From Candidatus Woesearchaeota archaeon (GTDB lineage Archaea; Nanobdellota; Nanobdellia; SCGC-AAA011-G17; GW2011-AR18), in contig CAYFPK010000001.1 in assembly GCA_964344975.1 (NCBI GenBank), positions 15,485-79,484 on the forward strand: DNA of 64,000 bases. Direction: 5' to 3'. The notes beneath the pieces were generated by a model that was not told the DNA's origin, did no database searches, and worked only from the letters and a program-made list of their open reading frames with translations. This document shows positions 3,183 to 61,944 of this stretch, in pieces. Both the position numbers and the translations under genes were made by a program. How positions within the stretch are numbered: the first letter of the stretch is position 1; each line of letters starts with the position of its first letter.

Positions 3183-4349
3183 ATGAAACTAAGATTCCAA
3201 TTATTGATATTGCTATTGGTTGTATCCATTATTCACATTATTTCTTTCACTTATCTTTCTTACACTGATACGGTTGATATATTGTTAGATGACAGTATCG
3301 AGGATCTAGAACGAGGTGTTTTTTCTAAGACCAAGGATGTAAACTTTTTTCTTTCTGGTGCTCAAGATGAGGTTTTGTTTCTAAGCCAATCTCCAATTCT
3401 TAATAAATTGGTTAATTCCAAAGACGAAAGTGATAAAGAATCACTAAAAGCAGATTTGGAGAAAGAATTTCTTTCGTTTCTAAAGAATAAGGATAAATAC
3501 CTTCAAGTAAGATATATTGATGAAGATGGTCAGGAAACCGTACGTATTGATAGAGGTGGTGGAACACCACTTATTGTTGATGAAGGATTACAAAATAAAG
3601 GAGATAGGTACTATTTCACCGATTCAATTAGTCTTAAAGAAGGAGAGATTTTTATCTCCCCACTAGACCTTAATATAGAAGAAGGAGTTATAGAAAACAG
3701 AGGAACGGAGGAAGAACCAGCCTATGTTCCTGTTATAAGATATGCAACTCCCATTTTTGATAAAGCAGGGAAAAACAGAGGAATTGTCATCACTAATCTT
3801 CATGCAGATGAGATGTTAAGTAATTTACAAAAAGGAGTTGTTGGGGACTTATTTTTGTTGAATAAGGAAGGATTCTACTTAACCCATCCCGATTATTATA
3901 AACAGTGGGGGTTTATGTTTGATAACGATGAGAAATTACAAAAAGATCATCCAGTAATAGCAGACAAATTACTTACCTCCAGCAACTTTTTTGAGTCCGG
4001 AAAACTCGTTGTTGTTGAAAACATTGAAGTAAACGAAGAAACATCTTGGGTTTTAGCAAATATAATCTCCAAAGATATTATTATAAATCCTGTGAAAAAA
4101 TCTGCTACCAAACTAATATGGATTGCAACAGTGCTAGCTGTTCTGATAACTATACTATCTCTTTATCTATCCCACACATTAACAAAACCAATAGAACTGA
4201 TAGCAAAGTTAAGTAGAGGAGAAAAAGGAGTTGATATTAAGAAGTTTAAGAAGAAGAATGATGAAATTGGTGATATGGCAAGAGCATTTAGCAGGATGAG
4301 CGCTAGTATCAAGTTTTTATCACAAGATGAAAAGAGTAAGAAAAAATGA
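3183..4349 (+). CDS. Cache-like sensor / TM / HAMP protein with no methyl-accepting signalling domain
   Basis: N-terminal TM (LLILLLVVSIIHIISFTYL), a ~270 aa extracytoplasmic domain with a Cache-like pattern, a second TM (IWIATVLAVLITILSLYL), then a HAMP-like segment (TKPIELIAKLSRGEKGVDIKKF...IGDMARAFSRMSASIKFL). The ORF stops right after HAMP. TATA-like ctttaaataa at 3149-3158, 24 nt upstream of the ATG. Coding strand is T-rich, unlike other plus-strand genes. Confidence 0.5.
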   Translation: MKLRFQLLILLLVVSIIHIISFTYLSYTDTVDILLDDSIEDLERGVFSKTKDVNFFLSGAQDEVLFLSQSPILNKLVNSKDESDKESLKADLEKEFLSFLKNKDKYLQVRYIDEDGQETVRIDRGGGTPLIVDEGLQNKGDRYYFTDSISLKEGEIFISPLDLNIEEGVIENRGTEEEPAYVPVIRYATPIFDKAGKNRGIVITNLHADEMLSNLQKGVVGDLFLLNKEGFYLTHPDYYKQWGFMFDNDEKLQKDHPVIADKLLTSSNFFESGKLVVVENIEVNEETSWVLANIISKDIIINPVKKSATKLIWIATVLAVLITILSLYLSHTLTKPIELIAKLSRGEKGVDIKKFKKKNDEIGDMARAFSRMSASIKFLSQDEKSKKK

Positions 4350-6134: not shown

Positions 6135-6754
6135 TGTAATTTATGCTTTATAGCCTCAACAACTTTAGTTAACGATTCAATAGCAATAAGTAAAATAAAC
6201 TCACCCTCTACCTTCTGTCCAGGAACAGAAAAATGAGTCTTAAGCAAAATGGAATACTTTTCCTCAATACCAAGCAGTGCTAAATCAGCAAGAGATTCAC
6301 CAAACGTTGAGACAATACGTTCTTCAGAAGAGTTAATAGAAAGTTCCAAAAATTCAGTAAGAGAATGTACATAATTTTTAGTTAGCACATTACCCACCTC
6401 TTTTAAACGAATTTGATCCTCAGCACTCAGTACCTTTGTTGTTCCAGGTTTACGACCATTGACAAGATCTACCAAAAACAAGGCATTTTCGGTAGTATAG
6501 ACGATCAAAACGGTACCAGCAACATCACCGGTCAAAGAGGAATAGGTACCCACCACCATTTGCTGAGGACCACCAAGAACAGTAGGCAAATCCTTAACAG
6601 GCAACAAATAAATTTCAGGGGTAATAAGATTCACTTGTTGATCCAGCAAACGAGCAAGAGCCCCAGAAGCCTTACCCGCCCCAATGTTGGAAACTTCTTT
6701 TAAAGCATCTTGAAACTTATCCAGTTTAAAGCCTTTCAAAGCGAACCACCTCAC
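6131..6754 (-). CDS. cheC: CheC-family (CheC/CheX/FliY-like) chemotaxis phosphatase
   Basis: Two internally repeated segments carrying CheC signatures: ALKEVSNIGAGKASGALARLL and EDQIRLKEVGNVLTKNYVHSL (E...N motifs). Confidence 0.55.
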   Translation of the reverse strand: MRWFALKGFKLDKFQDALKEVSNIGAGKASGALARLLDQQVNLITPEIYLLPVKDLPTVLGGPQQMVVGTYSSLTGDVAGTVLIVYTTENALFLVDLVNGRKPGTTKVLSAEDQIRLKEVGNVLTKNYVHSLTEFLELSINSSEERIVSTFGESLADLALLGIEEKYSILLKTHFSVPGQKVEGEFILLIAIESLTKVVEAIKHKLQ

Positions 6755-13669: not shown

Positions 13670-13677
13670 TTATATAA
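13670..13677 (+). promoter_or_regulatory. TATA box (ttatataa) for the leaderless DUF3368/UPF0175 cassette
   Basis: 21 nt upstream of ATG 13699. Same geometry as other promoters in the window. Confidence 0.45.
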
Positions 13678-14511: not shown

Positions 14512-14568
14512 AAACTGCTTAAATTTCTCACCAAACTAGCATAATATACGAAAAAACAACCAAAAAGT
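14512..14568. repeat. direct repeat copy B (diverged reductase 3'-end remnant plus promoter)
   Basis: See copy A. Encodes KLLKFLTKLA* out of frame with the neighbouring genes. Confidence 0.6.
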
Positions 14569-14575
14569 ATATAAA
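14568..14575 (+). promoter_or_regulatory. TATA box (tatataaa) for the AbrB-antitoxin/VapC cassette
   Basis: 23 nt upstream of ATG 14599. Confidence 0.45.
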
Positions 14576-14598: not shown

Positions 14599-14796
14599 AT
14601 GGAAGCAAGAGTAACAAAATGGGGAAATTCAATGGGAGTCCTCTTATCAAAAAGGAAACTAGAAGAGTTAGGTATTAAAAAAGGAGATAAAATCGAAATC
14701 AACATAATCAGCAAAAAAAGAATAGATGGGTTCGGAATTTGTAAAGGGGCAAAGCCATTTAAAAGAGAAAAAGACGAACACGAAGATTTATGGTAA
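14599..14796 (+). CDS. AbrB/MazE/SpoVT-type antitoxin
   Basis: VTKWGNSMGVLLSKRKLEELGIKKGDKIEI is the swapped-hairpin AbrB-type motif (K-x-GNS). Confidence 0.6.
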   Translation: MEARVTKWGNSMGVLLSKRKLEELGIKKGDKIEINIISKKRIDGFGICKGAKPFKREKDEHEDLW

Positions 14797-14797
14797 A

Positions 14798-15184
14798 ATG
14801 GAATACATATTAGATAGCTATGCCTGGATTGAATATTTTAATGGGACAGAAGAGGGAAAAATAGTGAATAAACTCTTTAAAGATCCAAAAAAGAGATTCT
14901 ACACAGTAATTTGTTGTCTTGCTGAAATACAAGGTTGGGCTTTGAAAAATAAAGGAAATTTTGAAAACCTTTTCAGACTAATAAAAAGCAATTCGACAAT
15001 AATACAACTTACAGAGCAAGATTGGATTCAAGCAGCAAAAGAAAAGCACGAGCAAAGAAAAGCCTACAAAGATTTTGGATTAATAGATGCAACACTCATC
15101 ACAATACAAAAACAGATAAAGGCAAAAATAGTTTCAGGTGACAAACATTTCAAAGAGCAAAAAGGAGTGATCTTTCTGGCATGA
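14798..15184 (+). CDS. vapC: PIN-domain toxin VapC (longest ORF starts at 14726)
   Basis: MEYILDSYAWIEYF start immediately after the antitoxin TAA (14794-14796). GLIDATLITIQ...GDKHF are PIN acidic positions. Confidence 0.65.
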   Translation: MEYILDSYAWIEYFNGTEEGKIVNKLFKDPKKRFYTVICCLAEIQGWALKNKGNFENLFRLIKSNSTIIQLTEQDWIQAAKEKHEQRKAYKDFGLIDATLITIQKQIKAKIVSGDKHFKEQKGVIFLA

Positions 15185-15281: not shown

Positions 15282-16331
15282 TTAACCTAATCTATACCGC
15301 AACACACAAACAACCCCACCAAGCCCGTCAAGCTGCGCACCAGAATCAGAAGCACCAGAAACAATATGTACAGCACCAGATGATTTTTCACAATTTTCTA
15401 AAACAGCATCAAGTTCAGCGTATCGCTCATCTTCACGCAAAGAAGCAATAAACGTATCAGTAACTAACAAAACCTTAACAGCGCCCAAAGACACAGCAGA
15501 GCTAACATCAACAAGACCATAACACACCAAACCAGGATCAGTACGCAACACAGACAAAAATTCAGTAACTAAAGCAACATCTTGTTGCAAGCGAGCAAAA
15601 GATAATGCACGTTGCACTTCACTGCGACGCAACAACTCTTGTAAACCAACTTTTCCGGTGTGATGACAGGTAGCAAGAACAACTTTAAAGTTAACAGAAC
15701 CAAGCCGTTTATAGATTTCATCCTTCCAAAACGCCGGACTACCAATAACAACAGTAGACAAACCGTACCGGTCAACATACGAGGAGATCTCAGCAACCAC
15801 ATCAGCATAAAAGTCACCAGAAGACATATGCCCCGCTCTCTTTTTAGCAACATTACCAGAAATTTCACCCAAAAAAGCAAGACCATAGCCTTGCAACAAA
15901 CCAAAGGAAGCTACTTCCCGATCAAGAGCAACTAAAAGTACAGTTGACTTAGCAGAAGAACACGCATCATCTAAATGTTTTTTTTGAAAAGCAAGCAATT
16001 TAGATTTAGTAACAAAAAAAGTATCACCTACAGCAAAACGAAACGTATGGTAACTCCCTGATGCAACCTCATCAGACCCATCGACAACAGTACCAACAAC
16101 TTCTAACACATCTTGAGCAAAAGTAACTCGCTCAACATTAACAGATAACGAAAACACTTTACGCACCACACGCGACTTAGCATCAGCATCACCTAAACGT
16201 ACTTTACGCTCATCCTTGGCAATAACAACATCCCCAGCGGATAAAAAATGACTTAAGTGCCACAAATCATCAAGGGTAGCAACACGTAAACGAAACTCCT
16301 TTTTTTTCAGATCGCAAAAGACTAAATCCAT
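15282..16331 (-). CDS. pelA: Pelota/Dom34 ribosome-rescue factor (longest ORF extends to 16382)
   Basis: MDLVFCDLKKKEFRLRVATLDDLWHLSHFL matches the Pelota N-terminus (DLKKGEIKL..EDLDDLWHL). eRF1-like central and C-terminal domains follow. Confidence 0.75.
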   Translation of the reverse strand: MDLVFCDLKKKEFRLRVATLDDLWHLSHFLSAGDVVIAKDERKVRLGDADAKSRVVRKVFSLSVNVERVTFAQDVLEVVGTVVDGSDEVASGSYHTFRFAVGDTFFVTKSKLLAFQKKHLDDACSSAKSTVLLVALDREVASFGLLQGYGLAFLGEISGNVAKKRAGHMSSGDFYADVVAEISSYVDRYGLSTVVIGSPAFWKDEIYKRLGSVNFKVVLATCHHTGKVGLQELLRRSEVQRALSFARLQQDVALVTEFLSVLRTDPGLVCYGLVDVSSAVSLGAVKVLLVTDTFIASLREDERYAELDAVLENCEKSSGAVHIVSGASDSGAQLDGLGGVVCVLRYRLG

Positions 16332-16353
16332 AACACAACCAAGTACATAACCT

Positions 16354-16361
16354 TTATAAAG
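16354..16361. promoter_or_regulatory. palindromic TATA box (tttataaa) shared by divergent leaderless genes pelA and 16383
   Basis: 22 nt from the Pelota ATG (16331, minus) and 21 nt from ATG 16383 (plus). The intergenic region is only 51 bp. Confidence 0.5.
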
Positions 16362-16382
16362 CATACGAGCTAAAATCAACAC

Positions 16383-17561
16383 ATGTTCAACAAAAGAGGT
16401 GCAGGTGAAGGCAAAGCGATAGCCTCCCTAATTATGGTCATTGCATTAGCAATCGCCTTATACGTAATTTTAATCCCCCCTGAAGAACGTCAAGCACTTT
16501 TAGAAGGGGACATCACAGACGAAATAAAAGACACAGTAAAAAGCCTAGAACTCCTCTCAGAAGCACCTGGACAACTTTCACCTAGGCAAGAGACAGGCAC
16601 TGTTCATAGCATTAACGCAATCAACTTATTCATTAAAACCGAACCAGAGATAATCAGACTCGCAGACCATTTGCAAGTAAAAAGATCTTTAGTAACAAAA
16701 TCATCCCCCACGTTAAGATTCGACGCAAACAACTTAAACAATTTAAACAAGGCAAGCCTGTACTTCACCACACAAGAACCGCAAGGCACATTAAAACTTA
16801 AAATTAACGGTGAACAGTTTTACAGTAAAGAGCTTACAGGTGGCGTAAAAGTTATTGACATACCAACCATATACATACAAGAAACAAACCAGATACAGCT
16901 CACTGCATCATCCCCAGGACTGGCATTTTGGAGAACAAACGAATTTAACTTACAAGACGTGGGAGTTCGGTTAGAATACGAAAGAATTAACGCAAAAGAA
17001 ACACGCACGTTCCAAATTGCGCAGCAAGAGTTAGAATCATTAACAGAGGCAGACCTCAAGTATACCATGGTCTGTAATGCGCCGCTACAACAAAATACAG
17101 CAAACTTAAGAATTATCCTCAACGACTTAGAAATTATTGACAGCCAAATAAGATGTGTAAGCACAGAGCAAATAATTGAACTAGAAAAAAATCACTTAAG
17201 ACAGGGCCAAAACGAGGTAACTTTCATCATTGATGACGGTGAGTTCGCATTCAACCAGCTCAAGTTAGAAACAAAGTCTGATGAGATAACCCATCCCACC
17301 TACTTCTTCACTGTAAGTAGCAAAGAAATGCAAAGAATAGAGGAGCTTAACAAAGAGGCAATCCTAGAAATTTTCTTAGAGGATAACAACAAAGCAAAAA
17401 ACGCACGGCTAAACATTAACGACGAAACTATTTTCATGACCACACAAGAAAGCAAGTTCACCTACGATATAACAGACCTGCTAGATACAGGTACAAACTT
17501 CATCCGCATCCAACCAACAACGACATTCACGATGGTAGGATTGAAACTCACAATAGAATGA
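16383..17561 (+). CDS. N-terminally anchored extracytoplasmic protein
   Basis: Short basic N-terminus (MFNKRGAGEGK) followed by a hydrophobic helix (AIASLIMVIALAIALYVILI), then a ~350 aa hydrophilic beta-rich domain. No known motif. Confidence 0.45.
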   Translation: MFNKRGAGEGKAIASLIMVIALAIALYVILIPPEERQALLEGDITDEIKDTVKSLELLSEAPGQLSPRQETGTVHSINAINLFIKTEPEIIRLADHLQVKRSLVTKSSPTLRFDANNLNNLNKASLYFTTQEPQGTLKLKINGEQFYSKELTGGVKVIDIPTIYIQETNQIQLTASSPGLAFWRTNEFNLQDVGVRLEYERINAKETRTFQIAQQELESLTEADLKYTMVCNAPLQQNTANLRIILNDLEIIDSQIRCVSTEQIIELEKNHLRQGQNEVTFIIDDGEFAFNQLKLETKSDEITHPTYFFTVSSKEMQRIEELNKEAILEIFLEDNNKAKNARLNINDETIFMTTQESKFTYDITDLLDTGTNFIRIQPTTTFTMVGLKLTIE

Positions 17562-29793: not shown

Positions 29794-30207
29794 TTAAAGG
29801 TTATCGAAACTAGAACAGGCATCATAACAAGGGAAGAGTTCTACAACTTCAGCATCACCATGCTCACGAGCAGAATATTTCGCAACAACGCGTTTAGCCA
29901 AAGGCAAGCAACGATCATCAGAAACAAGAACCGGGACAGACCCTTCATGTGCAGCAAGTGCCTCAACGCAAGCCGGTGAAAAAAGAAGGTCATCAACAAC
30001 AGCACCAAGTTTACGCATATCCCACGTGGAGCCTGCATATACGTGAGGCGTACGACCGGGAGTTACTAAACGAATAAAGGGTACAGGTTTAGGCCAAGGA
30101 CCACGTTCAGTGGTCAAATGCAGGTAAAGAGAAGAGGTAGGAGGAGTTTGCGTTACAGAAAGGCCAGAATCAAGAAGGGCACGTCGTTGAGCTATTTTCA
30201 CATCCAT
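29794..30207 (-). CDS. hypothetical protein
   Basis: 137 aa, no recognisable motif. Confidence 0.3.
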   Translation of the reverse strand: MDVKIAQRRALLDSGLSVTQTPPTSSLYLHLTTERGPWPKPVPFIRLVTPGRTPHVYAGSTWDMRKLGAVVDDLLFSPACVEALAAHEGSVPVLVSDDRCLPLAKRVVAKYSAREHGDAEVVELFPCYDACSSFDNL

Positions 30208-30257
30208 ACCAGTGAGAACACCTAAAAGTATATAAAAATGTCCTGCAAAAAAGCCCC

Positions 30258-31205
30258 ATGATCATAAAAGAGCAACCAGAAGACTTCATTGTTAATGAGA
30301 AAATAGAGCTTAAAATAGAGAAAGGCCCGTATACCTACCTCAAAATCACCAAAATCAACAGAAATACGCTGGATATAGTCAAATTCTTAGAAAACAAGTT
30401 CAGAACCAAAGTCGGTTTTGCCGGGACAAAAGACAAAAAAGCGGTAACCAGCCAAGTTCTTTCACTCAAGAACGTCCAACCAGAACAGCTCAAACATCTA
30501 AAAATTGACCAAACCACGTTAGAAGTTTTGGGTACAGGAAAAACACCTATCTCGTTAGGAGACCACAAGGGCAACGAATTTATCATCATGGTAAAAGACA
30601 TAGATAAAAAAGCGCAAGAATACACCCAAGTAGAAAACTATTTTGACGAGCAAAGATTCAGTACACATAATGTAAGCATAGGCCGAGCGTTAATAAAAAA
30701 AGAGCTAGAAAAAGCGTGTAAATTAATCCAAGATAAAAAAATGAACGAATACCTACAAAAAAGACCTAAAGATTTCATCGGCGCCTTGCAGACCTTACAC
30801 AAAAAACAACTACAGTTTTATCTGCACGCGTATCAAAGTTATTTGTTCAATGAAGCACTCAAAAGTTACGTGCAGCAGCAAACAGAAAACACAGTAGAAG
30901 TATCCTACAGCAAAGGAACATTTAGTTTTACAAAAAAACAGATTAAAGAGACAGAGCTACCTTTAGCAACTTTTGACATGCCAGAATGTACATACTACAA
31001 TGACATCTTCAAAAAAGAGGAGCTAACACAAAGAGACTTTGCAACAAGACACTTACCGCAACTCATCAGCACGACAACAACCAGGCCAACACATGTAGAG
31101 GTAGAAAACCTCAAGATAGACTACAAGAAAGGCCAAGCCAAATGTGCATTTTTCTTAAAGAAAGGCAGCTACGCCACAATTGTTATAAAAAAGCTCTTTG
31201 CATAA
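30258..31205 (+). CDS. truD: tRNA pseudouridine synthase TruD/Pus7 family
   Basis: N-terminal EQPEDFIVNE and GFAGTKDKKAVTSQ contain the TruD catalytic Asp motif (GxKD). Confidence 0.7.
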   Translation: MIIKEQPEDFIVNEKIELKIEKGPYTYLKITKINRNTLDIVKFLENKFRTKVGFAGTKDKKAVTSQVLSLKNVQPEQLKHLKIDQTTLEVLGTGKTPISLGDHKGNEFIIMVKDIDKKAQEYTQVENYFDEQRFSTHNVSIGRALIKKELEKACKLIQDKKMNEYLQKRPKDFIGALQTLHKKQLQFYLHAYQSYLFNEALKSYVQQQTENTVEVSYSKGTFSFTKKQIKETELPLATFDMPECTYYNDIFKKEELTQRDFATRHLPQLISTTTTRPTHVEVENLKIDYKKGQAKCAFFLKKGSYATIVIKKLFA

Positions 31206-42594: not shown

Positions 42595-42718
42595 CGCCGC
42601 GGGCAGGATTTGAACCTACATATCCGTGAGGAAACCGGCTCTCTCGAACTCCGTTGGGAGTAGAAAGCTAAGCTTTCGTATTCAAGGCCGGCGCAATACC
42701 AGATTATGCGACCGCGGC
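42595..42718 (-). tRNA. tRNA-Ser (anticodon UGA) with a ~40-nt intron at the canonical 37/38 position
   Basis: Manual fold of the minus strand: acceptor GCCGCGG/CCGCGGC, D-arm, anticodon stem CCGGC/GCCGG with loop CUUGAA[intron]A (anticodon UGA), 15-nt variable arm with UCC/GGA stem (type II tRNA), T-arm GUAGG-UUCAAAU-CCUGC, discriminator G. Intron about 42641..42680. Needs confirmation with tRNAscan-SE / BHB-motif search. Confidence 0.6.
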
Positions 42719-43945: not shown

Positions 43946-44494
43946 CTAAATTTCCTTTTTCAAAAATAAGGCATACGACTTTCCTTTAGGCGTGCGAGCA
44001 ATAAGACCTTTCTTTTCAAAAGAACTAACAATTTGACTGACCTTCGCCTTTGAAAGATCACAACGCACACCAACCATATGTTGTGTAATCCCCTCTGCAG
44101 CAACTATAGTTGAAAGCACCTTACGCTCCGAAGGGTCTAACACTAAAGACAAGGTATCTAAACGTATTTTACGAACATCCATTCGTTGAGCAGCATCCAA
44201 ACGAGAAAGAATATCATCAGAACCCCGGTGAAAAAGAAGAAGATAAAAAGAGAAGCTTAAAAGAGCAACCACAAGCCCCACAGCAATGTGAGAAAGATTC
44301 AAACTTTGACTAATTTGGATACAATCTGCAGAAATACTACACCCTAAAGACATACTTTGCGATTGCAACTGTGCAACAACAAAATAAAGAAAAAGAGCAA
44401 AGAAGAGGCTAAAACCAAGTAAAATGAGACCTAACTTTTTACGTTCCACAAATAAAACAGTAAAAGGCAGCTTTAAATAAATTGCGAAAAGCAA
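43946..44494 (-). CDS. membrane-anchored winged-helix regulator (start uncertain)
   Basis: Two N-terminal TM segments, then a C-terminal wHTH (LDPSERKVLSTIVAAEGITQHMVGVRCDLSKAKVSQIVSSFEKKGLI). Only 6 bp separate this start from the divergent topA start, so one of the two starts may be wrong. Confidence 0.4.
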   Translation of the reverse strand: MLFAIYLKLPFTVLFVERKKLGLILLGFSLFFALFLYFVVAQLQSQSMSLGCSISADCIQISQSLNLSHIAVGLVVALLSFSFYLLLFHRGSDDILSRLDAAQRMDVRKIRLDTLSLVLDPSERKVLSTIVAAEGITQHMVGVRCDLSKAKVSQIVSSFEKKGLIARTPKGKSYALFLKKEI

Positions 44495-44500
44495 AAGATC

Positions 44501-47300: not shown

Positions 47301-47379
47301 ACAACATCATAAGAAGAGGTATATAAATAGACATCGAAAAAGACAGATTTAAAAGTTTTACGCAACTCCAAAGCAGATT

Positions 47380-50600: not shown

Positions 50601-51500
50601 TTACAGATGTTTAAACGGTGTCGTGATCACATGTCCGGTTTTCGTCACAAAAAATGAATTCTCATGCTGCGTAACTAACTGACCATCACGATCAGGTAAC
50701 TGTGCGTAGCCATAAATCACCCGGGCACGGTCAAGCATCATAAGACCTCGCGTAGCTTTTTGCACACCAAACTCATTAGCAATCGCTAATTTAGAAAAAG
50801 GCAGAGTCTTAAACTCAGCCAAAATAAAATTCAACACATCACGAGCAACTCTATCACGTACAGGCGCTTTACGATCAAACCGATAGATAGTAGAATGTGC
50901 TCCTTCTTTAACAAAACCACTGCCTGCAGTAACAAAAGGCTCAATAGCAATCATCTGTCCTGCTTTAAGCTGCGTCTCATCACCGTTATCATAATTAGGA
51001 ATAGTCATACCAGCGTGAACCTTCCAACGAGCAACCCCATGCCCAGATAAATTACGCACTGGATTAAACCCTGCATCTTTAGCAACATCATGTACAGCAG
51101 CACCAATTTCACGCACAGCGGTTCCAGGTTTCACAAGTTTAGTCGCCGCTTGTAAACAATGCAAAGAAGCATCAAGAATATCACTAGACCCACCACCAAC
51201 CAGAACAGTTCGCGCATTGTCAGCGATGTAGCCATCAACATGCACACCAACATCAATTTTGACTAAATCACCTTTGGCAAACACTTTAGGATCATTTGGT
51301 GCAGGCGTATAATGTGCAGCCATATCATTGACAGACAAACCAACAGGAAAAGCTAAACGTCCACCTTTACTACGAACAAACGCTTCAACCTTGTTGGCAA
51401 CATCCAAAAGTAAAACGCCCTCTTTAATCAAATGAGCACCATAATACAGAGCTTCAGACGCAATCACGCCAGGTTTTTGCCATAAAGCTAAATCATCCAT
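50601..51500 (-). CDS. map: methionine aminopeptidase, type 2 (archaeal); longest ORF extends to 51638
   Basis: Pita-bread fold motifs (...GLSVNDMAAHYTP..., ...KIDVGVHVDGYIADNARTV..., metal ligands D/D/H/E/E). Start chosen at ATG 51500 (MDDLALWQ...) because of promoter geometry and the overlap with fen1. Confidence 0.75.
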   Translation of the reverse strand: MDDLALWQKPGVIASEALYYGAHLIKEGVLLLDVANKVEAFVRSKGGRLAFPVGLSVNDMAAHYTPAPNDPKVFAKGDLVKIDVGVHVDGYIADNARTVLVGGGSSDILDASLHCLQAATKLVKPGTAVREIGAAVHDVAKDAGFNPVRNLSGHGVARWKVHAGMTIPNYDNGDETQLKAGQMIAIEPFVTAGSGFVKEGAHSTIYRFDRKAPVRDRVARDVLNFILAEFKTLPFSKLAIANEFGVQKATRGLMMLDRARVIYGYAQLPDRDGQLVTQHENSFFVTKTGHVITTPFKHL

Positions 51501-51521
51501 AAAGCAGGGAACCAAAACCAT

Positions 51522-51529
51522 TTTATAAA
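51522..51529. promoter_or_regulatory. palindromic TATA box (tttataaa) shared by divergent leaderless map and fen1
   Basis: 21 nt from ATG 51500 (minus) and 20 nt from ATG 51550 (plus). Confidence 0.5.
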
Positions 51530-51549
51530 GCTTTATTAGAGCAAAAACC

Positions 51550-52557
51550 ATGGGCATCAACTTAGCAAGTATCATTCCAAAAGAAGAAATCAAGTTTGAA
51601 GATCTTAAAGGCAAAAAGGTAGCAGTAGACTTCTCCAATATGGCCTATCAATTCCTAGCAAGCATTAGGCAACCAGACGGCACTCCTTTACAAAACAGCC
51701 AAGGAAAAACAACATCACATTTGCAAGGAATATTGTCACGAGTGAGCAATTTAACAGAAAAAGAAATTAAACTTGCTTTTGTCTTTGACGGCAAACCGCC
51801 ATTACTTAAAGTAAAAGAACTTGAAGCACGTGCACACAGAAAAGTGCTCGCAAAACAAAAGTATGACACAGCAATGCAAGAAGATAATGTAGACGACGCA
51901 TACAAGTACAGTAAGCAAACCATCAGATTAACAAAAGAGATGAAAGAAGAATCGCAAGAACTCCTAGAAGCTATGGGGTTTCCCTGTATACAAGCCCCCC
52001 AAGAAGCTGAAGCACAAACAGCATACATGACCAAAAAAAATGATGTCTTCGCAGCAGCATCTTCTGATTACGACAGTTTACTGTTTGGCTGTCCAAGAAG
52101 TATTCGAAACTTAACACTGGCACAAAAAAGAAGACTACGGGGTGGAAAATATGTATACACGTTTTTAGAACTCATGAAACTTGAAAAAATAAAAAAAGAA
52201 CTAGTCATTAACCAAGAACAACTAATAGCAATTGGGATATTAACAGGGACAGATTTTAACAGAGGCGGCATAAAAGGGATTGGCCCAAAAAAAGCAATAA
52301 AGTTAGTTAAAGAGAAAAAAACGATAAAAAACATCTTCAAAGATCTTGAGTGCGACTTTGATCCAGAAGAAATTTACAACATTTTCACCAAAATGCCCAT
52401 TGAAGAAAAATACAAACTAGTATGGAAACAACCAAACGAAAAAAGGTTGTTAAATTTATTGGTAGACAAAAATGAGTTTAACCAAGCAAGAGTCGAAGGG
52501 TACATAAAAAGACTCAGCAAAAGAGAAAAAACCCAAAAAGGGTTAAGCGACTTTTAA
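51550..52557 (+). CDS. fen1: flap endonuclease FEN-1
   Basis: MGINLASIIPKEEIKFEDLKGKKVAVDFSNMAYQFL is the XPG-N start, followed by XPG-I (GTDFN...GIGPKKA) and an H3TH motif. Confidence 0.85.
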   Translation: MGINLASIIPKEEIKFEDLKGKKVAVDFSNMAYQFLASIRQPDGTPLQNSQGKTTSHLQGILSRVSNLTEKEIKLAFVFDGKPPLLKVKELEARAHRKVLAKQKYDTAMQEDNVDDAYKYSKQTIRLTKEMKEESQELLEAMGFPCIQAPQEAEAQTAYMTKKNDVFAAASSDYDSLLFGCPRSIRNLTLAQKRRLRGGKYVYTFLELMKLEKIKKELVINQEQLIAIGILTGTDFNRGGIKGIGPKKAIKLVKEKKTIKNIFKDLECDFDPEEIYNIFTKMPIEEKYKLVWKQPNEKRLLNLLVDKNEFNQARVEGYIKRLSKREKTQKGLSDF

Positions 52558-56878: not shown

Positions 56879-58686
56879 TTTTTCTCGTCCTCCAACAAAT
56901 ATGCAATATCAGCTGACTCAGGCTCATCTAAAAATACAAAACGGTTTTCATCAACACCTAAAACCGCAAAATCTTCAGCACGACCAACAGGCGGAGAATC
57001 AATAGATTCGCGATCAGCTTCAGACTCATCAACAACTGGCGGTTCAACTTCCTCTTCAGGAATTAAAGAAGAAAAGTCAGGACTCTTGGAAAAATCAAAT
57101 CTAAAAAAAGCAGAGTTCTCATCACAAGAATAACGAATCGACTTAGGCATCGCTCCCGACTTCGTTGCAATAGGACCTAAAGCAATAGGGGTTTGAAAAC
57201 GGTCAGGCCTTCTTTCAGGGCCAGAGGTACCTTTAGCAAAGGGCAAACGCCAAAAAGAGATTGTTTTTCCCTCAAAAGCAGGATAAAAACTAAGACGAGT
57301 AGAACGGTATGAAGAAAAAAGATCAGTAACAAACCGAGAGGTAAAAAGAAACCTTCCATCTTCAGAAAAAGGTTCTCCTGAGTAGGAATTTCCAGCATAA
57401 AGATTGCAGGAAAAACCAACAGGAAAATCAGAAAGATTCGCAATAGTTGCAACAACGGGTTGTGAAGAGTACGGTTTATTTAATAGGACATAGTAATAAT
57501 AAATTTTTGGATCAGGACCACTAAGAAGTCTATCCAATAAAGAATCTCTCGGAGCAAGTGTTTTCACAACTGGATAGTTCAGCAAGATTTTCATCACAGG
57601 CATCTTCGGCATAGGGTCAGTTAACACCAAATAGTTCCAACCAACAATATCACCATGAGTTTTCTCACGGCCACTCACCACAACACAAAGTAACGTAAAC
57701 GTTTTAGGGTAAGGTTTTTTAAGCCGTTCACGATAATTACAATCCCACTCCAAAGAAGTTCCAAGACCCACAGGTTTACGTTTACCACGATACACTTTTG
57801 CAACATCCTTAAGCGTCAACGCCTTTTTGCCACGCACAACATACCACAAGACTGTCGCTTTCAAAGGTACATCACGCGCAGCAACCTCTAAAGTTGTATC
57901 GGTTAAAGGCAACAGCCCCTTGTGCAAATCAGAACCCACAAACGCAGCAGTATCAACAGGAGACATAATATGCACACGGGAAACTCCACGGGAAACTTCT
58001 TCTCCAGGTACTTCTTCAGTTGGAGGTTCAGGCGTAGAAAGAGGAAGTAACGGGTCAAATCTAAACAAGAACTCAGAGGTAGTCAAAAGATGTTTATCAG
58101 AGTAACGAAGAAGTGAAGCATCTAAGCGAACAACATCTGCACCATCTCCAAGTTCATCACAGATAAAATGGCTCAGCACAAGTAAAAAAGAACCATCTTC
58201 TTGAGCAACCAAAGTATGTGCAGCAAGAACAGCGCTGGTAAAAAGAAATGCACGGCCATCTTCAGTAACAAGAGAAACCTCCAATTCATAGTCTTGAAGC
58301 CGTTCCCCAGAAAGTTTAAAGGCAATCTTGGCATCATCCACACGAGTTCCATCAAAAAGCAGTACATCTTTGCGAAAACCAAAGGCACCTTCCTTGGCAA
58401 AACGCAGGTGAGCACAAAAGTTAGGATCAATATCAACTCCAAGAGATTCAGCAATCTCCTCTTCATCCACAATTTCAACAGGCACTTCTACAGGCACGTG
58501 AAACGAAAACAACACAGGCGCAGTAACAGCAATTTGTTCACCACCCACATCATAAAGTTCAGCAGAAATCTCATACTCTCCAGAAGATACCATCTTACTT
58601 AAAGCAACAAACTCAGAGGTAAAATCATAGGTAAAGTCATCACCCGCAGCAGGTTCCAAGATAAATCCTTTCTTAAACTTCTTCAT
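56875..58686 (-). CDS. uncharacterized protein B (~603 aa) of the coupled operon; longest ORF extends to 58746
   Basis: ATG at 58686 (MKKFKKGFILEPAAGDD...) overlaps the TGA of gene A (ATGA at 58683-58686). No motif. Acidic C-terminus. Confidence 0.55.
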   Translation of the reverse strand: MKKFKKGFILEPAAGDDFTYDFTSEFVALSKMVSSGEYEISAELYDVGGEQIAVTAPVLFSFHVPVEVPVEIVDEEEIAESLGVDIDPNFCAHLRFAKEGAFGFRKDVLLFDGTRVDDAKIAFKLSGERLQDYELEVSLVTEDGRAFLFTSAVLAAHTLVAQEDGSFLLVLSHFICDELGDGADVVRLDASLLRYSDKHLLTTSEFLFRFDPLLPLSTPEPPTEEVPGEEVSRGVSRVHIMSPVDTAAFVGSDLHKGLLPLTDTTLEVAARDVPLKATVLWYVVRGKKALTLKDVAKVYRGKRKPVGLGTSLEWDCNYRERLKKPYPKTFTLLCVVVSGREKTHGDIVGWNYLVLTDPMPKMPVMKILLNYPVVKTLAPRDSLLDRLLSGPDPKIYYYYVLLNKPYSSQPVVATIANLSDFPVGFSCNLYAGNSYSGEPFSEDGRFLFTSRFVTDLFSSYRSTRLSFYPAFEGKTISFWRLPFAKGTSGPERRPDRFQTPIALGPIATKSGAMPKSIRYSCDENSAFFRFDFSKSPDFSSLIPEEEVEPPVVDESEADRESIDSPPVGRAEDFAVLGVDENRFVFLDEPESADIAYLLEDEKK

Positions 58687-60908
58687 GGACGTTTTCCCCC
58701 AAAAGGCCACCAACCCTTTTTTTTCTTGGCAGGTCGCACATGCCACACAATGCGATCAACACGGTCAGCCACTTCACCAGGCTCTAAGCGAGCAACAACG
58801 GGACCTCCAGCAGTTACTTCAGCAGGCATATCCAAATGAACAACAGGCAAAGGTGTAGCTTCATCAGAGGTTTCTGCAAGTATAGACAAAAAATAATCCT
58901 CTGAAGACAAAATGGAGCGATCGTACTCAACATCCGCATCAGGCGCAAAGACTTTGAAAAAGAAAAGATAAGGTTTCCCAAAAGCAGGCGGATATTCAGA
59001 AGAAAAATGGCGGCGAAGTTGAGAAAGATCAAAAAGATAGGATCCATCATCCTCCATAAACATACCGGGAAAAAGAGTGGTACCATCCTGAGATCTAAAG
59101 AGAAGTGAAAGTTGATAAGGTATAAAATCCTTTTTTTGCAACTGTAGTCCAAGATGTAGTGGTACAGATGAATGAAAATCAGCAAAAGAGATTCTAAATT
59201 CATAAGGGGTACGCCAAGAAGGTGTAGAAATACCCGAGGATTTATTTTTCAAAAAGCGAAATTTAAAATCCTTTGGTAGAGTAGGAGGTCCATCCGCTTC
59301 AGGCTCTTCAGGACTAACTCCTTCACCTACAACTTCAACAAAAATAAGGTCATAATTAACACGCTCACCAGCATCATCATAACCTGCAACAGCAACCGTG
59401 TAAAGGTTCGAATCAAGCGGAGGAGTAGAAAAAGTAGTTAAGACTCCTCTTGCAGAGGGTCTAACAGAAATATGATCAAAAGAAACATATCCTGGTACAA
59501 TACTCCAACCAGAAGAAACAACTGAAGAACCAAATAGTGCACTAAAAGTCAACTCAGTATTTGCCGGAACTTGCACAAAGTTTTTATCTTTTCTAACTTT
59601 TATTTTAAACTCTTTCCAATCAGATCGCGCAGCAACAATCCTCACAGAAGTAGCTCGAGCAGCTTCACCCAGTTCAGCATCTTCATCTTTGCCTCGCCGC
59701 CACTTTCGCTTTAAACGTTCCCACCAATTAAGACCTTCATCCTCAGGCTTAACCTCTTCAGGTTCAGGAAGAATAGGAGCAACAGTATCATTAACAATTT
59801 GAACACCATGCACACCTGATGACGCTTTTGCGCCAGTCTCAGTATCGGTACAGGTTACTTCTAAACCAAGGTTCATGCGTTGCCCAGGCCGCAACCCATA
59901 ACGTGCAAGATCTAAGGTAATCGAATCTAAGTTCGGACCAGCAAAACGTTGTGGATAATTTTTCACACGCCACTTAAACTGATAAATACGGCCAGGTTCT
60001 CCACCTTGCACATGAGCAATGAGACGCAACGTAGGACTAGCTGAAATTCGTACAGGGTCAATGGCAGGCTCATGATGAAGTATAACAGTAAATGAAGCAC
60101 GTGGCGTTGATCTAAAAAGCCCACCGAATTTTTTAAACGGCCAAAGAGCAAGACCACCAAGTCCTTTTGCAGCACCCCAGCCAAGACCACCAACACCTTT
60201 AGCAGCGCCCCAACCTTTATCGCCAGTCCACTTAGCAGCTCCCCAACCTTTATCGCCAGTCCACTTAGCAGCACCAACACCTTTATCTTTTCCAGAAGAA
60301 GAAAGGCGACCAAGACCGTGCCAAAAACCTTCCTTAGCACCATCTTCACCAGCACCATACGCAGCAACACGATCTTTAGTACCACGTAAGATATGAATTA
60401 ATAATAGCAACCCTAAGAGTAAAGCTACAGGAAGCAAAAATTCTGCAGGGATAGGTATCCAATAAAACAACTGCGGGTACCACAGATAGCCAACAAGTAA
60501 AGCAGCAAGTAAAATGCCAATAAGGTACATCCCCGACCCATGCGTTTTATCTTTAACCAAGTGATACAAAAACCCAACAGCAATGATACCTAAGAAAACT
60601 AACACAAACGGACCAATGCTAAAAAGTGAAAACCCTTGATAAATTTCCCAGGTAACAAGTGCAAGTGAACATACTAGCCCAAGTGCAAAAGCAAGGTTCT
60701 TTGAAGTTTTACCATCACCACCCACTAACGGTTTGAGGGCAACATCAAAAAGTAAAGACAAAACAAGAAAGGCAACAAAAAAATCGAGCCAACCGTAATA
60801 ATCATAATACAAATCTAGAGGAGTAAAAACAACAGCAGAAACTAAAGGTAAACAAAGTAGCAACAGAGCAAAAACTAGCAAAAACCTACCTCTTTTTAGC
60901 ACAAACAT
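58683..60908 (-). CDS. polytopic membrane protein A (~741 aa; longest ORF extends to 61121) with W/G-rich tandem repeats, first gene of the coupled operon
   Basis: From ATG 60908: MFVLKRGRFLLVFALLLLCLPLVSAVVF..., about 8 TM helices in the first ~230 aa. Then GKDKGVGAAKWTGDKGWGAAKWTGDKGWGAAKGVGGLGWGAAKGLGG (exact 33-bp tandem duplication at 60208..60273). Then a ~450 aa hydrophilic beta-rich domain. Basic C-terminus. Start at 60908 is preferred because 61121 would overlap the divergent Trm5-like gene by 158 nt. Confidence 0.5.
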   Translation of the reverse strand: MFVLKRGRFLLVFALLLLCLPLVSAVVFTPLDLYYDYYGWLDFFVAFLVLSLLFDVALKPLVGGDGKTSKNLAFALGLVCSLALVTWEIYQGFSLFSIGPFVLVFLGIIAVGFLYHLVKDKTHGSGMYLIGILLAALLVGYLWYPQLFYWIPIPAEFLLPVALLLGLLLLIHILRGTKDRVAAYGAGEDGAKEGFWHGLGRLSSSGKDKGVGAAKWTGDKGWGAAKWTGDKGWGAAKGVGGLGWGAAKGLGGLALWPFKKFGGLFRSTPRASFTVILHHEPAIDPVRISASPTLRLIAHVQGGEPGRIYQFKWRVKNYPQRFAGPNLDSITLDLARYGLRPGQRMNLGLEVTCTDTETGAKASSGVHGVQIVNDTVAPILPEPEEVKPEDEGLNWWERLKRKWRRGKDEDAELGEAARATSVRIVAARSDWKEFKIKVRKDKNFVQVPANTELTFSALFGSSVVSSGWSIVPGYVSFDHISVRPSARGVLTTFSTPPLDSNLYTVAVAGYDDAGERVNYDLIFVEVVGEGVSPEEPEADGPPTLPKDFKFRFLKNKSSGISTPSWRTPYEFRISFADFHSSVPLHLGLQLQKKDFIPYQLSLLFRSQDGTTLFPGMFMEDDGSYLFDLSQLRRHFSSEYPPAFGKPYLFFFKVFAPDADVEYDRSILSSEDYFLSILAETSDEATPLPVVHLDMPAEVTAGGPVVARLEPGEVADRVDRIVWHVRPAKKKKGWWPFGGKRP
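60150..60290. repeat. 33-bp tandem repeats inside membrane protein A (encodes the KGWGAAKWTGD units)
   Basis: Unit ccccaacctttatcgccagtccacttagcagc(t) occurs as two exact adjacent copies (60208..60273), flanked by degenerate copies. Confidence 0.7.
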
Positions 60909-60934
60909 GTCTAAATGCAAAATCGGCGAAATGG

Positions 60935-60943
60935 TTATATAAA
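60935..60943. promoter_or_regulatory. palindromic TATA box (ttatataaa) between divergent membrane protein A and the Trm5-like gene
   Basis: 20 nt upstream of ATG 60964 (plus) and 26 nt upstream of ATG 60908 (minus). Confidence 0.45.
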
Positions 60944-60963
60944 GCTTGTGATAACATAAACAG

Positions 60964-61944
60964 ATGAAAGCAGCTAAAATCCCACTAAGCAAGGCACAAG
61001 AAGAAAAAAAACGCCTTTTTGACAAAGGGGTAATAAACAAAGAATATAAAGCAAAAAGAGACAAAAAATTTTTGTACATTCCTCTCATAAAAGAAATAAA
61101 AGGCATTAAAATGGTCAACAAAGTGTTTGAAAAAAAACAACGTATAACAGCAAAAACAATATTAAAAAAAGTGTTAACAAAAGAACAATTAAAACTCCTC
61201 CCATCTGCCTACGATGTGATAGGTAGCATCTTAATTTTCGAACTTAAAAGTGAGTTAACAAAAAAGGAAAAGGTTATTGCACAAGCATATTTGCAAGCAA
61301 ACAAAAATGTAGAGACCGTAGCAAAAAAGCAAGGCATCCACCACGGCGTGTACAGAACACAAAACATCAAAATTTTAGCAGGAAAAAACACGAAGGTAAC
61401 CACACATAAAGAGAACGGGATTCAAATTGAACTCAACGTAGAAAAGGTCTATTTTTCACCGAGAACAGCAACAGAAAGGCTAAGAATAGCAAAATTGACA
61501 AAAAAAGGTGAAGAAATTTTAGTACCATTTGCTGGCTGTGCCCCATTTCCATTAGTGATGAAAAAGCAAAACCCGACCGTAAAAATAACAGCAATTGAAC
61601 TCAATCCAACAGCATGTAGATACGCTAAAAAAAATTGTAAAAAAACAGACATAGAAGTCATCTGCGGTGATGTGAAAAAAGCAATCCCAAAAAAGACTTA
61701 CGACCGAATCATCATGCCCTTACCTAAATCCGCTGAAGAGTTCTTGCCCACGATAAAAAAACATGTCAAAAAAGGCACAAATATCCACGTGTACGCATTT
61801 AATCTAGAGCAAACCGCACAAGACATCAAAAAGCGCCTAGAAAAGGAGCATACATGGCTTAAAGTGCAAAAAACCGTCAAATGCGGCGACTATGGCCCAA
61901 ACATCCACAGGTACTGTTTTGACTGTAAAGCGAAAGGTATTTAA
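60964..61944 (+). CDS. Trm5/Taw2(TYW2)-family tRNA methyltransferase
   Basis: SAM-binding motifs (ILVPFAGCAPFPL, ...DRIIMPLP...) typical of the Trm5/Tyw2 class I methyltransferase family. N-terminal D1-like domain. Confidence 0.6.
   Translation: MKAAKIPLSKAQEEKKRLFDKGVINKEYKAKRDKKFLYIPLIKEIKGIKMVNKVFEKKQRITAKTILKKVLTKEQLKLLPSAYDVIGSILIFELKSELTKKEKVIAQAYLQANKNVETVAKKQGIHHGVYRTQNIKILAGKNTKVTTHKENGIQIELNVEKVYFSPRTATERLRIAKLTKKGEEILVPFAGCAPFPLVMKKQNPTVKITAIELNPTACRYAKKNCKKTDIEVICGDVKKAIPKKTYDRIIMPLPKSAEEFLPTIKKHVKKGTNIHVYAFNLEQTAQDIKKRLEKEHTWLKVQKTVKCGDYGPNIHRYCFDCKAKGI

Follow-up and report, generated by a model that had tools for sequence, protein, structure and literature searches.

Core promoters in which one TATA box serves two directions have been described in model Euryarchaeota. 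In Thermococcus kodakarensis, divergent start sites lie predominantly 52 bp apart around a shared TTATAAA, and similar shared-TATA bidirectional promoters occur in Haloferax volcanii (Warman et al., bioRxiv 10.1101/2020.01.31.928960). Pyrococcus furiosus has promoters with a TTTAAA core and a transcription factor B recognition element (BRE) on either side of the TATA box (BRE-TATA-BRE), with start sites 49-50 bp apart and a weaker second BRE; one box yields both transcripts on in vitro transcription, a property credited to the symmetry of the TATA-binding protein (TBP) and of the TATA box (Gruenberger et al., 2019, PMC6640164). Leaderless mRNAs account for 72% in H. volcanii and 69% in Sulfolobus solfataricus (Babski et al., 2016, PMC4983044). 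No promoter or start-site map for DPANN archaea or Nanoarchaeum was found in the literature searched. Here we describe four divergent gene pairs in a 64-kb stretch (64,000 nucleotides; the window) of contig CAYFPK010000001.1 from a Candidatus Woesearchaeota archaeon, an organism known only from metagenome assemblies; the source of the contig is the PRJEB17505 metagenome, and homologues of FEN1 place it in the Woesearchaeota/Nanoarchaeia (DPANN). The paired genes are separated by spacers of about 50 bp, each with a TATA box near its middle, and it is likely that these spacers act as bidirectional archaeal core promoters of the BRE-TATA-BRE type, giving rise to leaderless mRNAs both ways. The shared-TATA mechanism is already published, and no new mechanism is proposed; what is new is the lineage, which extends this promoter type from model Euryarchaeota to an uncultivated lineage with a reduced genome, and the pairing of two coding genes with predicted leaderless mRNAs.

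A quasi-palindromic TATA box lies midway between divergent start sites in T. kodakarensis and H. volcanii (Warman et al.) and between divergent ATGs here, and the distance between the A residues of the paired ATGs, 50-56 bp here, compares with 52 bp between start sites there. Start sites were mapped in that work and many of the partners are non-coding, whereas here the start sites are deduced from ATGs, each partner encodes a protein on an apparently leaderless mRNA, and the organism belongs to the Woesearchaeota within the DPANN archaea. The secondary 36-bp class of T. kodakarensis is not seen here; relatives of this archaeon instead have spacers at 43-44 and 75-80 bp. With P. furiosus the spacers share a symmetric TATA box, a BRE or BRE-like element on both sides and unequal strength of the two. 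In P. furiosus, however, the second transcript has mostly been regarded as non-functional antisense RNA at head-to-tail genes, and the mRNAs have leaders, whereas here the second transcript would be the mRNA of a conserved gene for a housekeeping or secreted protein, and the spacer is reduced to the promoter alone. Like those of H. volcanii and S. solfataricus, the promoters of the window stand directly upstream of the start codon at a fixed TATA-to-ATG distance (21-23 nt here). The TATA consensus of this lineage differs from the haloarchaeal TTWT (bioRxiv 10.1101/2020.01.31.928960), and leaderlessness is, in the present case, predicted from sequence.

Coordinates, spacers and gaps were read directly from the window and are collected in Table 1. 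The initial annotation had proposed divergent pairs around one TATA box at three of these loci, joining pelota to a 392-aa protein, methionine aminopeptidase (MAP) to FEN1, and a membrane protein to Trm5. This geometry could be read in the sequence for all three, and a scan of all upstream regions turned up a fourth pair that had been overlooked, a 137-aa protein and the tRNA pseudouridine synthase TruD (30207/30258). Pfam confirmed the gene names assigned earlier (pelota, M24 methionine aminopeptidase, FEN1, Trm5). In each of the four spacers there is one A/T tract, 8-11 bp long, with G/C at either end and 19-27 nt from both ATGs, and each tract would be big enough for one TBP. Measured between the A residues of the paired ATGs, which stand in for start sites, the distances are 52, 51, 50 and 56 bp for the pelota, TruD, MAP/FEN1 and Trm5 pairs. 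At the pelota pair, the box had been placed one nucleotide off, at 16354-16361, and its gaps are 21 nt to the minus ATG and 22 nt to the plus ATG; the palindrome around it, CTTTATAAAG, is perfect over 10 bp and occurs once in the window. The MAP/FEN1 box was exact in position and in both gaps, while at the Trm5 pair the box TTATATAAA is where it had been reported, but its unequal gaps make it less symmetrical than had been suggested. The spacer lengths had been given as 28-55 bp; the upper value is correct, but 28 bp arises only with a MAP start at 51521, and the supported starts give 49-55 bp.

The pattern exceeds what chance would give. The 8-mer TTTATAAA has three copies in 64 kb, two of them within these spacers. 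Symmetric A/T 8-mers occupy 1.4% of the intergenic positions of the window, and from this density the chance of finding one in the seven central positions of all four short spacers is about 9e-5. A pyrimidine directly precedes seven of the eight ATGs, which is the usual initiator context, and no GGAGG- or GGTGA-like motif was seen in the eight TATA-to-ATG segments of 20-26 nt, which were read by eye and not formally scanned. A search of the window with Rfam gave no match inside the spacers, indicating that they are not known RNA genes.

Table 1. Divergent pairs, their spacers and TATA boxes, and comparison sites in the 64-kb window. Gaps run from box to ATG; bits are scores of the promoter matrix described in the text.
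Feature	Coordinates	Strand	Size or gaps	Details
Pelota (pelA)	15282..16331	-	349 aa	Pfam eRF1_1/2/3; ATG 16331, not the longest-ORF GTG 16382
Spacer, pelota pair	16332..16382		51 bp	ATG 16331 (-) / ATG 16383 (+); proposed bidirectional core promoter
TATA box, pelota pair	16353-16360		21 nt (minus ATG), 22 nt (plus ATG)	TTTATAAA within 10-bp palindrome and A/T tract CTTTATAAAG (16352-16361); plus 11.8 bits (CATAACCTTTATAAAG), minus 7.6 bits (CGTATGCTTTATAAAG)
392-aa protein	16383..17561	+	392 aa	N-terminal transmembrane segment; conserved divergent partner of pelota; no Pfam match
137-aa protein	29794..30207	-	137 aa	Unknown family; from ORF list and coding score; no Pfam match
Spacer, TruD pair	30208..30257		50 bp	137-aa ORF (-) / TruD (+) ATG 30258
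TATA box, TruD pair	30229-30236		21/21 nt	TATATAAA; A/T tract TATATAAAAAT (30229-30239); plus 8.6 bits (TAAAAGTATATAAAAA), minus <5 bits
TruD tRNA pseudouridine synthase	30258..31205	+		Pfam PF01142, E=1.2e-60, match from residue 2
Methionine aminopeptidase (M24, type 2)	50601..51500	-	299 aa	ATG 51500; Pfam
Spacer, MAP/FEN1 pair	51501..51549		49 bp	ATG 51500 (-) / ATG 51550 (+)
TATA box, MAP/FEN1 pair	51522-51529		21/20 nt	TTTATAAA; A/T tract ATTTTATAAA (51520-51529); plus 5.6 bits, minus 8.9 bits (TAAAGCTTTATAAAAT)
FEN1 flap endonuclease	51550..52557	+	335 aa	Pfam XPG_N, XPG_I
Secreted or membrane protein	58683..60908	-	741 aa	ATG 60908; signal peptide
Spacer, Trm5 pair	60909..60963		55 bp	ATG 60908 (-) / ATG 60964 (+)
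TATA box, Trm5 pair	60935-60943		26/20 nt	TTATATAAA, also the A/T tract; plus 6.7 bits (GAAATGGTTATATAAA), minus 12.4 bits (ACAAGCTTTATATAAC)
Trm5, tRNA (m1G37) methyltransferase	60964..61944	+		Pfam Trm5_N, TYW2_N_2, TRM5-TYW2_MTfase
Contrast case, two boxes	47301..47379		79-bp spacer	RadA-like (-) / 94-aa ORF (+); TATATAAA at 47320 for minus gene, ATTTAAAAG at ~47345 for plus gene
Unidirectional TATA	13670..13677	+	21 nt	TTATATAA, before ATG 13699 (weak PIN-like match)
Unidirectional TATA	14568..14575	+	23 nt	TATATAAA, before ATG 14599 (short ORF, then PIN gene 14726-15184)

The geometry rests on three start codons (16331, 51500 and 60908) that had been moved from those of the longest open reading frames (ORFs), and these starts were therefore tested independently of the promoter model. 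All three moves are backed, those of pelota and MAP by the N-termini of homologues and that of the 60908 protein by a signal peptide together with homologues. Residue 18 of the longest pelota ORF, the methionine at 16331, aligns with residue 1 of the archaeal pelotas in PDB entries 3j15, 2qi2 and 3obw, and independently called pelota homologues are 349-352 aa long. The N-terminus of MAP (MDDLALWQKPG) aligns with that of P. furiosus MAP (MDTEKLMKAG), residue 54 of the long ORF corresponding to residue 7 of the PDB chain, so that the methionine at 51500 lies one residue ahead of M1 of the P. furiosus protein. The MAP homologues of two relatives (loci L007 and L084) begin at the equivalent methionine, and in L007 an in-frame stop lies 18 nt before its codon and precludes any upstream extension. 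The public automatic call for MAP (L001 7664-8584) uses the ATG at 51519-51521 (-), which adjoins the TATA box, and gives a protein of 306 aa; because both the P. furiosus alignment and the L007 stop favour ATG 51500, this call probably begins 7 codons too far upstream. The longest ORFs of pelota and the 60908 protein are over-extended in like manner. The 60908 protein opens with the signal peptide MFVLKRGRFLLVFALLLLCLPLVSA, and its N-terminus aligns with those of homologues in L006 and L007. On the plus strand, M1 and G2 of FEN1 are invariant among 26 homologues, the N-terminus of Trm5 matches those of solved Trm5 proteins (residue 6 of PDB 5wt1 aligns to residue 6), and the N-terminus of the 392-aa protein, MFNKRGAGEGKAIASL..., is kept in its counterparts in L087, L088 and L089.

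A TATA box 21-23 nt before the ATG is the general promoter geometry in this lineage. When spacing was anchored on each ATG opening an ORF of at least 100 codons, with the expectation taken from non-ORF ATGs, symmetric A/T 8-mers peaked 21-23 nt upstream. The window has 26 where 2.7 were expected, and 22 related loci (334.6 kb in all, the closest with about 50-56% FEN1 identity) have 286 where 70 were expected. The same 21-23 nt spacing, previously noted at the toxin-antitoxin cassettes, was read there at 21 and 23 nt (Table 1). A de novo motif search of 62 upstream regions, from which the eight test genes had been withheld, returned GAAAGC-TTTTAAAA at 18-24 nt before the ATG, which reads as an archaeal BRE and TATA box positioned for leaderless transcription. 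A promoter matrix was built from 19 well-placed unidirectional sites after the mixing parameter of the zero-or-one-occurrence-per-sequence (ZOOPS) model had hit its ceiling. This matrix still includes a few doubtful sites and copes poorly with variable register between BRE and TATA box, which lowers some scores, such as that of the FEN1 direction. Six bits are reached by 0.25% of window positions; at the divergent spacers, both orientations score at least 5.6 bits at the expected distances in three of the four pairs.

The arrangement is not confined to this window. A survey of divergent junctions for central symmetric TATA boxes and their flanks found it recurrent in about 420 kb of Woesearchaeota sequence (the window and 25 loci). 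The 22 related loci contain 68 divergent ORF junctions. At 10 of them a symmetric A/T 8-mer lies 22±3 nt from both ATGs, against 0-3 junctions in each of the other, non-overlapping gap bins; a clear example reads CAT-N22-ATTTAAAT-N22-ATG. In the wider set, 33 divergent pairs have an own-strand TATA box 20-24 nt before each ATG, and their spacers fall at 43-44 bp (3 pairs), 49-54 bp (16), 60 bp (1), 75-80 bp (5) and above 90 bp (8). The 16 pairs with spacers of 49-54 bp are those with a single shared box, and the relatives peak at 51-52 bp. Positions -8 to -3 are A-rich on both flanks of 15 shared boxes (3.8 and 3.0 A); in 183 unidirectional promoters taken as controls, the upstream flank has 2.9 A and the reverse-complemented downstream flank 2.2 A. 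Shared-box flanks differ from control flanks when pooled (Mann-Whitney p=5.6e-6) and for the weaker side alone (p=0.018), and the pattern is that of BRE-TATA-BRE promoters. Every prediction of the idea that one symmetric box serves both directions that could be put to the sequences available was borne out. The survey also brought to light "crossed" pairs, in which two abutting TATA boxes each stand 20-24 nt only from the far gene. These have spacers of 43-46 bp with A/T tracts of 16-18 bp (L006 9967-10011, L019 16287-16331, L089 2956-3001 and L007 8735-8782), and there are none in the window.

Start sites in archaea are established to lie about 22-27 nt beyond the TATA box, in keeping with the 52-bp distance in T. 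kodakarensis. In the mechanism we propose, pseudo-symmetric TBP would bind the quasi-palindromic 8-bp TATA box midway between the divergent genes, and transcription factor B (TFB) would read a BRE-like A-rich element on either flank, the choice of flank setting the direction of RNA polymerase. Transcription would then begin about 22-27 nt from the box, on or a few bases from the A of each ATG, so that both mRNAs would be leaderless. As leaderless promoters hold the TATA box 21-23 nt from the ATG, a shared box would force an ATG-to-ATG spacer of about 52 bp, the shortest that would leave each gene with a TATA box at the right distance and uncrossed. About half of the close divergent pairs in a streamlined DPANN genome use the shared box. 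Two-way binding of TBP and TFB, the positions of the start sites and leaderless translation at these spacers are what we infer from the geometry and the flanks.

Could the central TATA box instead be unidirectional, serving the gene with the stronger BRE, with its partner using another promoter (for example inside the neighbouring gene, with a 5' leader) or low read-through, and the spacing of about 50 bp reflecting compaction? We consider this unlikely. The two orientations do differ in BRE strength in all four pairs (Table 1), and in P. furiosus the BRE on the antisense side is weaker too (PMC6640164). Nevertheless, in three pairs out of four even the weaker orientation outscores 99.7% of the positions in the window, and across the clade the weaker flank of shared boxes is richer in A than the non-promoter flank of unidirectional promoters. 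Reading of the sequence and scanning with the matrix revealed no alternative TATA box at usable distance in the first ~40 nt of the partner genes, and the genes for pelota, MAP and a large secreted protein are unlikely to be promoterless. A shared box would also be expected to give the sharp peak seen at 51-52 bp, and not a broad spread of short spacers. An explanation in which two TBP sites lie in slightly shifted registers of one A/T tract, one per direction, as a compressed form of the abutting or crossed layout, is decidedly improbable. The 11-bp tract of the TruD pair and the 10-bp tract of the MAP/FEN1 pair permit 2-4 registers, and the relatives with spacers of 43-46 bp have tracts that fit two adjacent boxes, each for the far gene. 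At 16353-16360 and 60935-60943, however, the G/C-bounded tract is only 8-9 bp, so that two sites would have at least 7 of their 8 bp in common and be effectively one site; functionally, moreover, two registers would differ little from a single shared box. It is hardly credible that the longer starts are correct (GTG 16382 or ATG 16364 for pelota, ATG 51521 or TTG 51638 for MAP, TTG 61121 or ATG 61106 for the membrane protein), such that the genes overlap or nearly abut and the symmetry is an artefact. Upstream in-frame codons are present, and the automatic caller took one of them for MAP, but the N-termini of all three proteins fit the shorter starts by the PDB alignments, homologue lengths, L007 stop and signal peptide described above, and in their long versions MAP and the membrane protein would run 88-158 nt into the partner gene.

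Several observations weigh against the shared-box explanation. The minus-direction BRE of the 30207/30258 pair is weak, scoring below 5 bits. The minus gap of the Trm5 pair is 26-27 nt, outside the 21-23 nt range, and the 60908 mRNA may have 4-5 nt of leader or be initiated with lower efficiency. In L007 the MAP/FEN1 spacer is 46 bp with an 18-bp A/T tract, which is unfit for one shared box. In relatives whose pelota is 58% and 40% identical, the spacer is 79 bp long and each gene has a separate TATA box at about 20-24 nt; in a third (38% identical) the 44-bp spacer has two abutting crossed boxes.

Conservation of the individual pairs is partial. The homologous pair of membrane protein and Trm5 has a 52-bp spacer in L007 and a 51-bp spacer in L006, and a T.TATAAA.CTT core is kept in both, the remainder of the spacer having diverged. 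The sister genome L084, in which FEN1 is 77% identical, separates MAP from FEN1 by 51 bp; its spacer has another palindrome at the centre, TTATTAATAA, and shares the blocks AACCAAAAC and ATAAAGCTT on either side with the window at 100% identity. The pelota/392-aa gene pair is itself kept in relatives, but its promoter layout varies among them, for which reason sharing is one of several interchangeable layouts, set by the constant TATA-to-ATG distance, and not a constrained regulatory device, nor a deeply conserved one at the pelota locus. The MAP-FEN1-Trm5 neighbourhood is loosely syntenic across the clade, with MAP 0-4 kb upstream of FEN1 and Trm5 a few kb downstream in many Woesearchaeota loci (L007, L006, L004, L008, L011-L016, L019-L021 and others).

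A broader reading, which we put forward tentatively and hold to be possible rather than probable, is that divergent spacers in the Woesearchaeota, and perhaps in other DPANN archaea, are quantised. Since leaderless promoters fix the TATA-to-ATG distance, only a few spacer lengths would be allowed: about 43-46 bp for crossed boxes, about 52 bp for a shared box, and at least 75 bp for two back-to-back BRE and TATA promoters. Lineages would switch between these states, and sharing would systematically compact the genome. Spacers of 55-74 bp are almost absent, and the 51-bp spacer of the pelota pair corresponds to one of 79 bp in two relatives and of 44 bp in a further one. If this reading is true, shared TATA boxes would serve about half of close divergent coding pairs, unlike the antisense noise of the Thermococcales. 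The spacers bear on the limit of intergenic compression in archaea and on the competition of paired genes for one TBP site. A more practical consequence concerns gene starts, which automatic callers misplace at such loci: an ATG 21-23 nt downstream of a TATA box may serve as an annotation rule for start codons in Woesearchaeota and related DPANN archaea.

Nine divergent junctions can be read from the gene map of the window, of which four have a shared box, two have clearly separate boxes (47300/47380, 79 bp, listed in Table 1 as a contrast; 44353/44501, 147 bp) and three are ambiguous. The last group includes the junction 6739/6818, whose spacer would be 78 bp on the assumption of a tentative TTG start at 6739. 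In the sister genome, the counterpart of the 47300/47380 spacer is masked by Ns. At 44353/44501, the spacer 44354-44500 includes a TATA-like box, TTTATTTT, that belongs to the MarR-family gene (43946-44353, -) and stands about 27 nt ahead of it, and the divergent topoisomerase gene (44501) uses a different promoter. An inverted repeat, TTGCAACTGTGCAA, lies between the MarR-family box and the ATG and is a plausible autoregulatory operator.

Other features of the window concern its composition and non-coding sequence. The plus strand is extremely asymmetric, with 39.4% A and 21.5% T and with C exceeding G, irrespective of gene orientation, and the skew does not switch within the window. Third codon positions, read on the coding strand, have 48% A and 19% T in plus-strand genes and 20% A and 51% T in minus-strand genes. 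An AT skew of +0.23 is also found in the sister locus L084; 20 other Woesearchaeota loci lie within ±0.19. The sole Rfam tRNA match in the window (44.2 bits) is a gene of 124 nt at 42595-42718 (-), presumably intron-containing, and ARAGORN misses it, reporting no tRNAs at all. Ten consecutive G residues (gggggggggg), a run unusual at 36-40% GC, lie in the intergenic region at 3190-3210, upstream of the gene at 3183-4349 and just before a TATA-like CTTTAAATAA.

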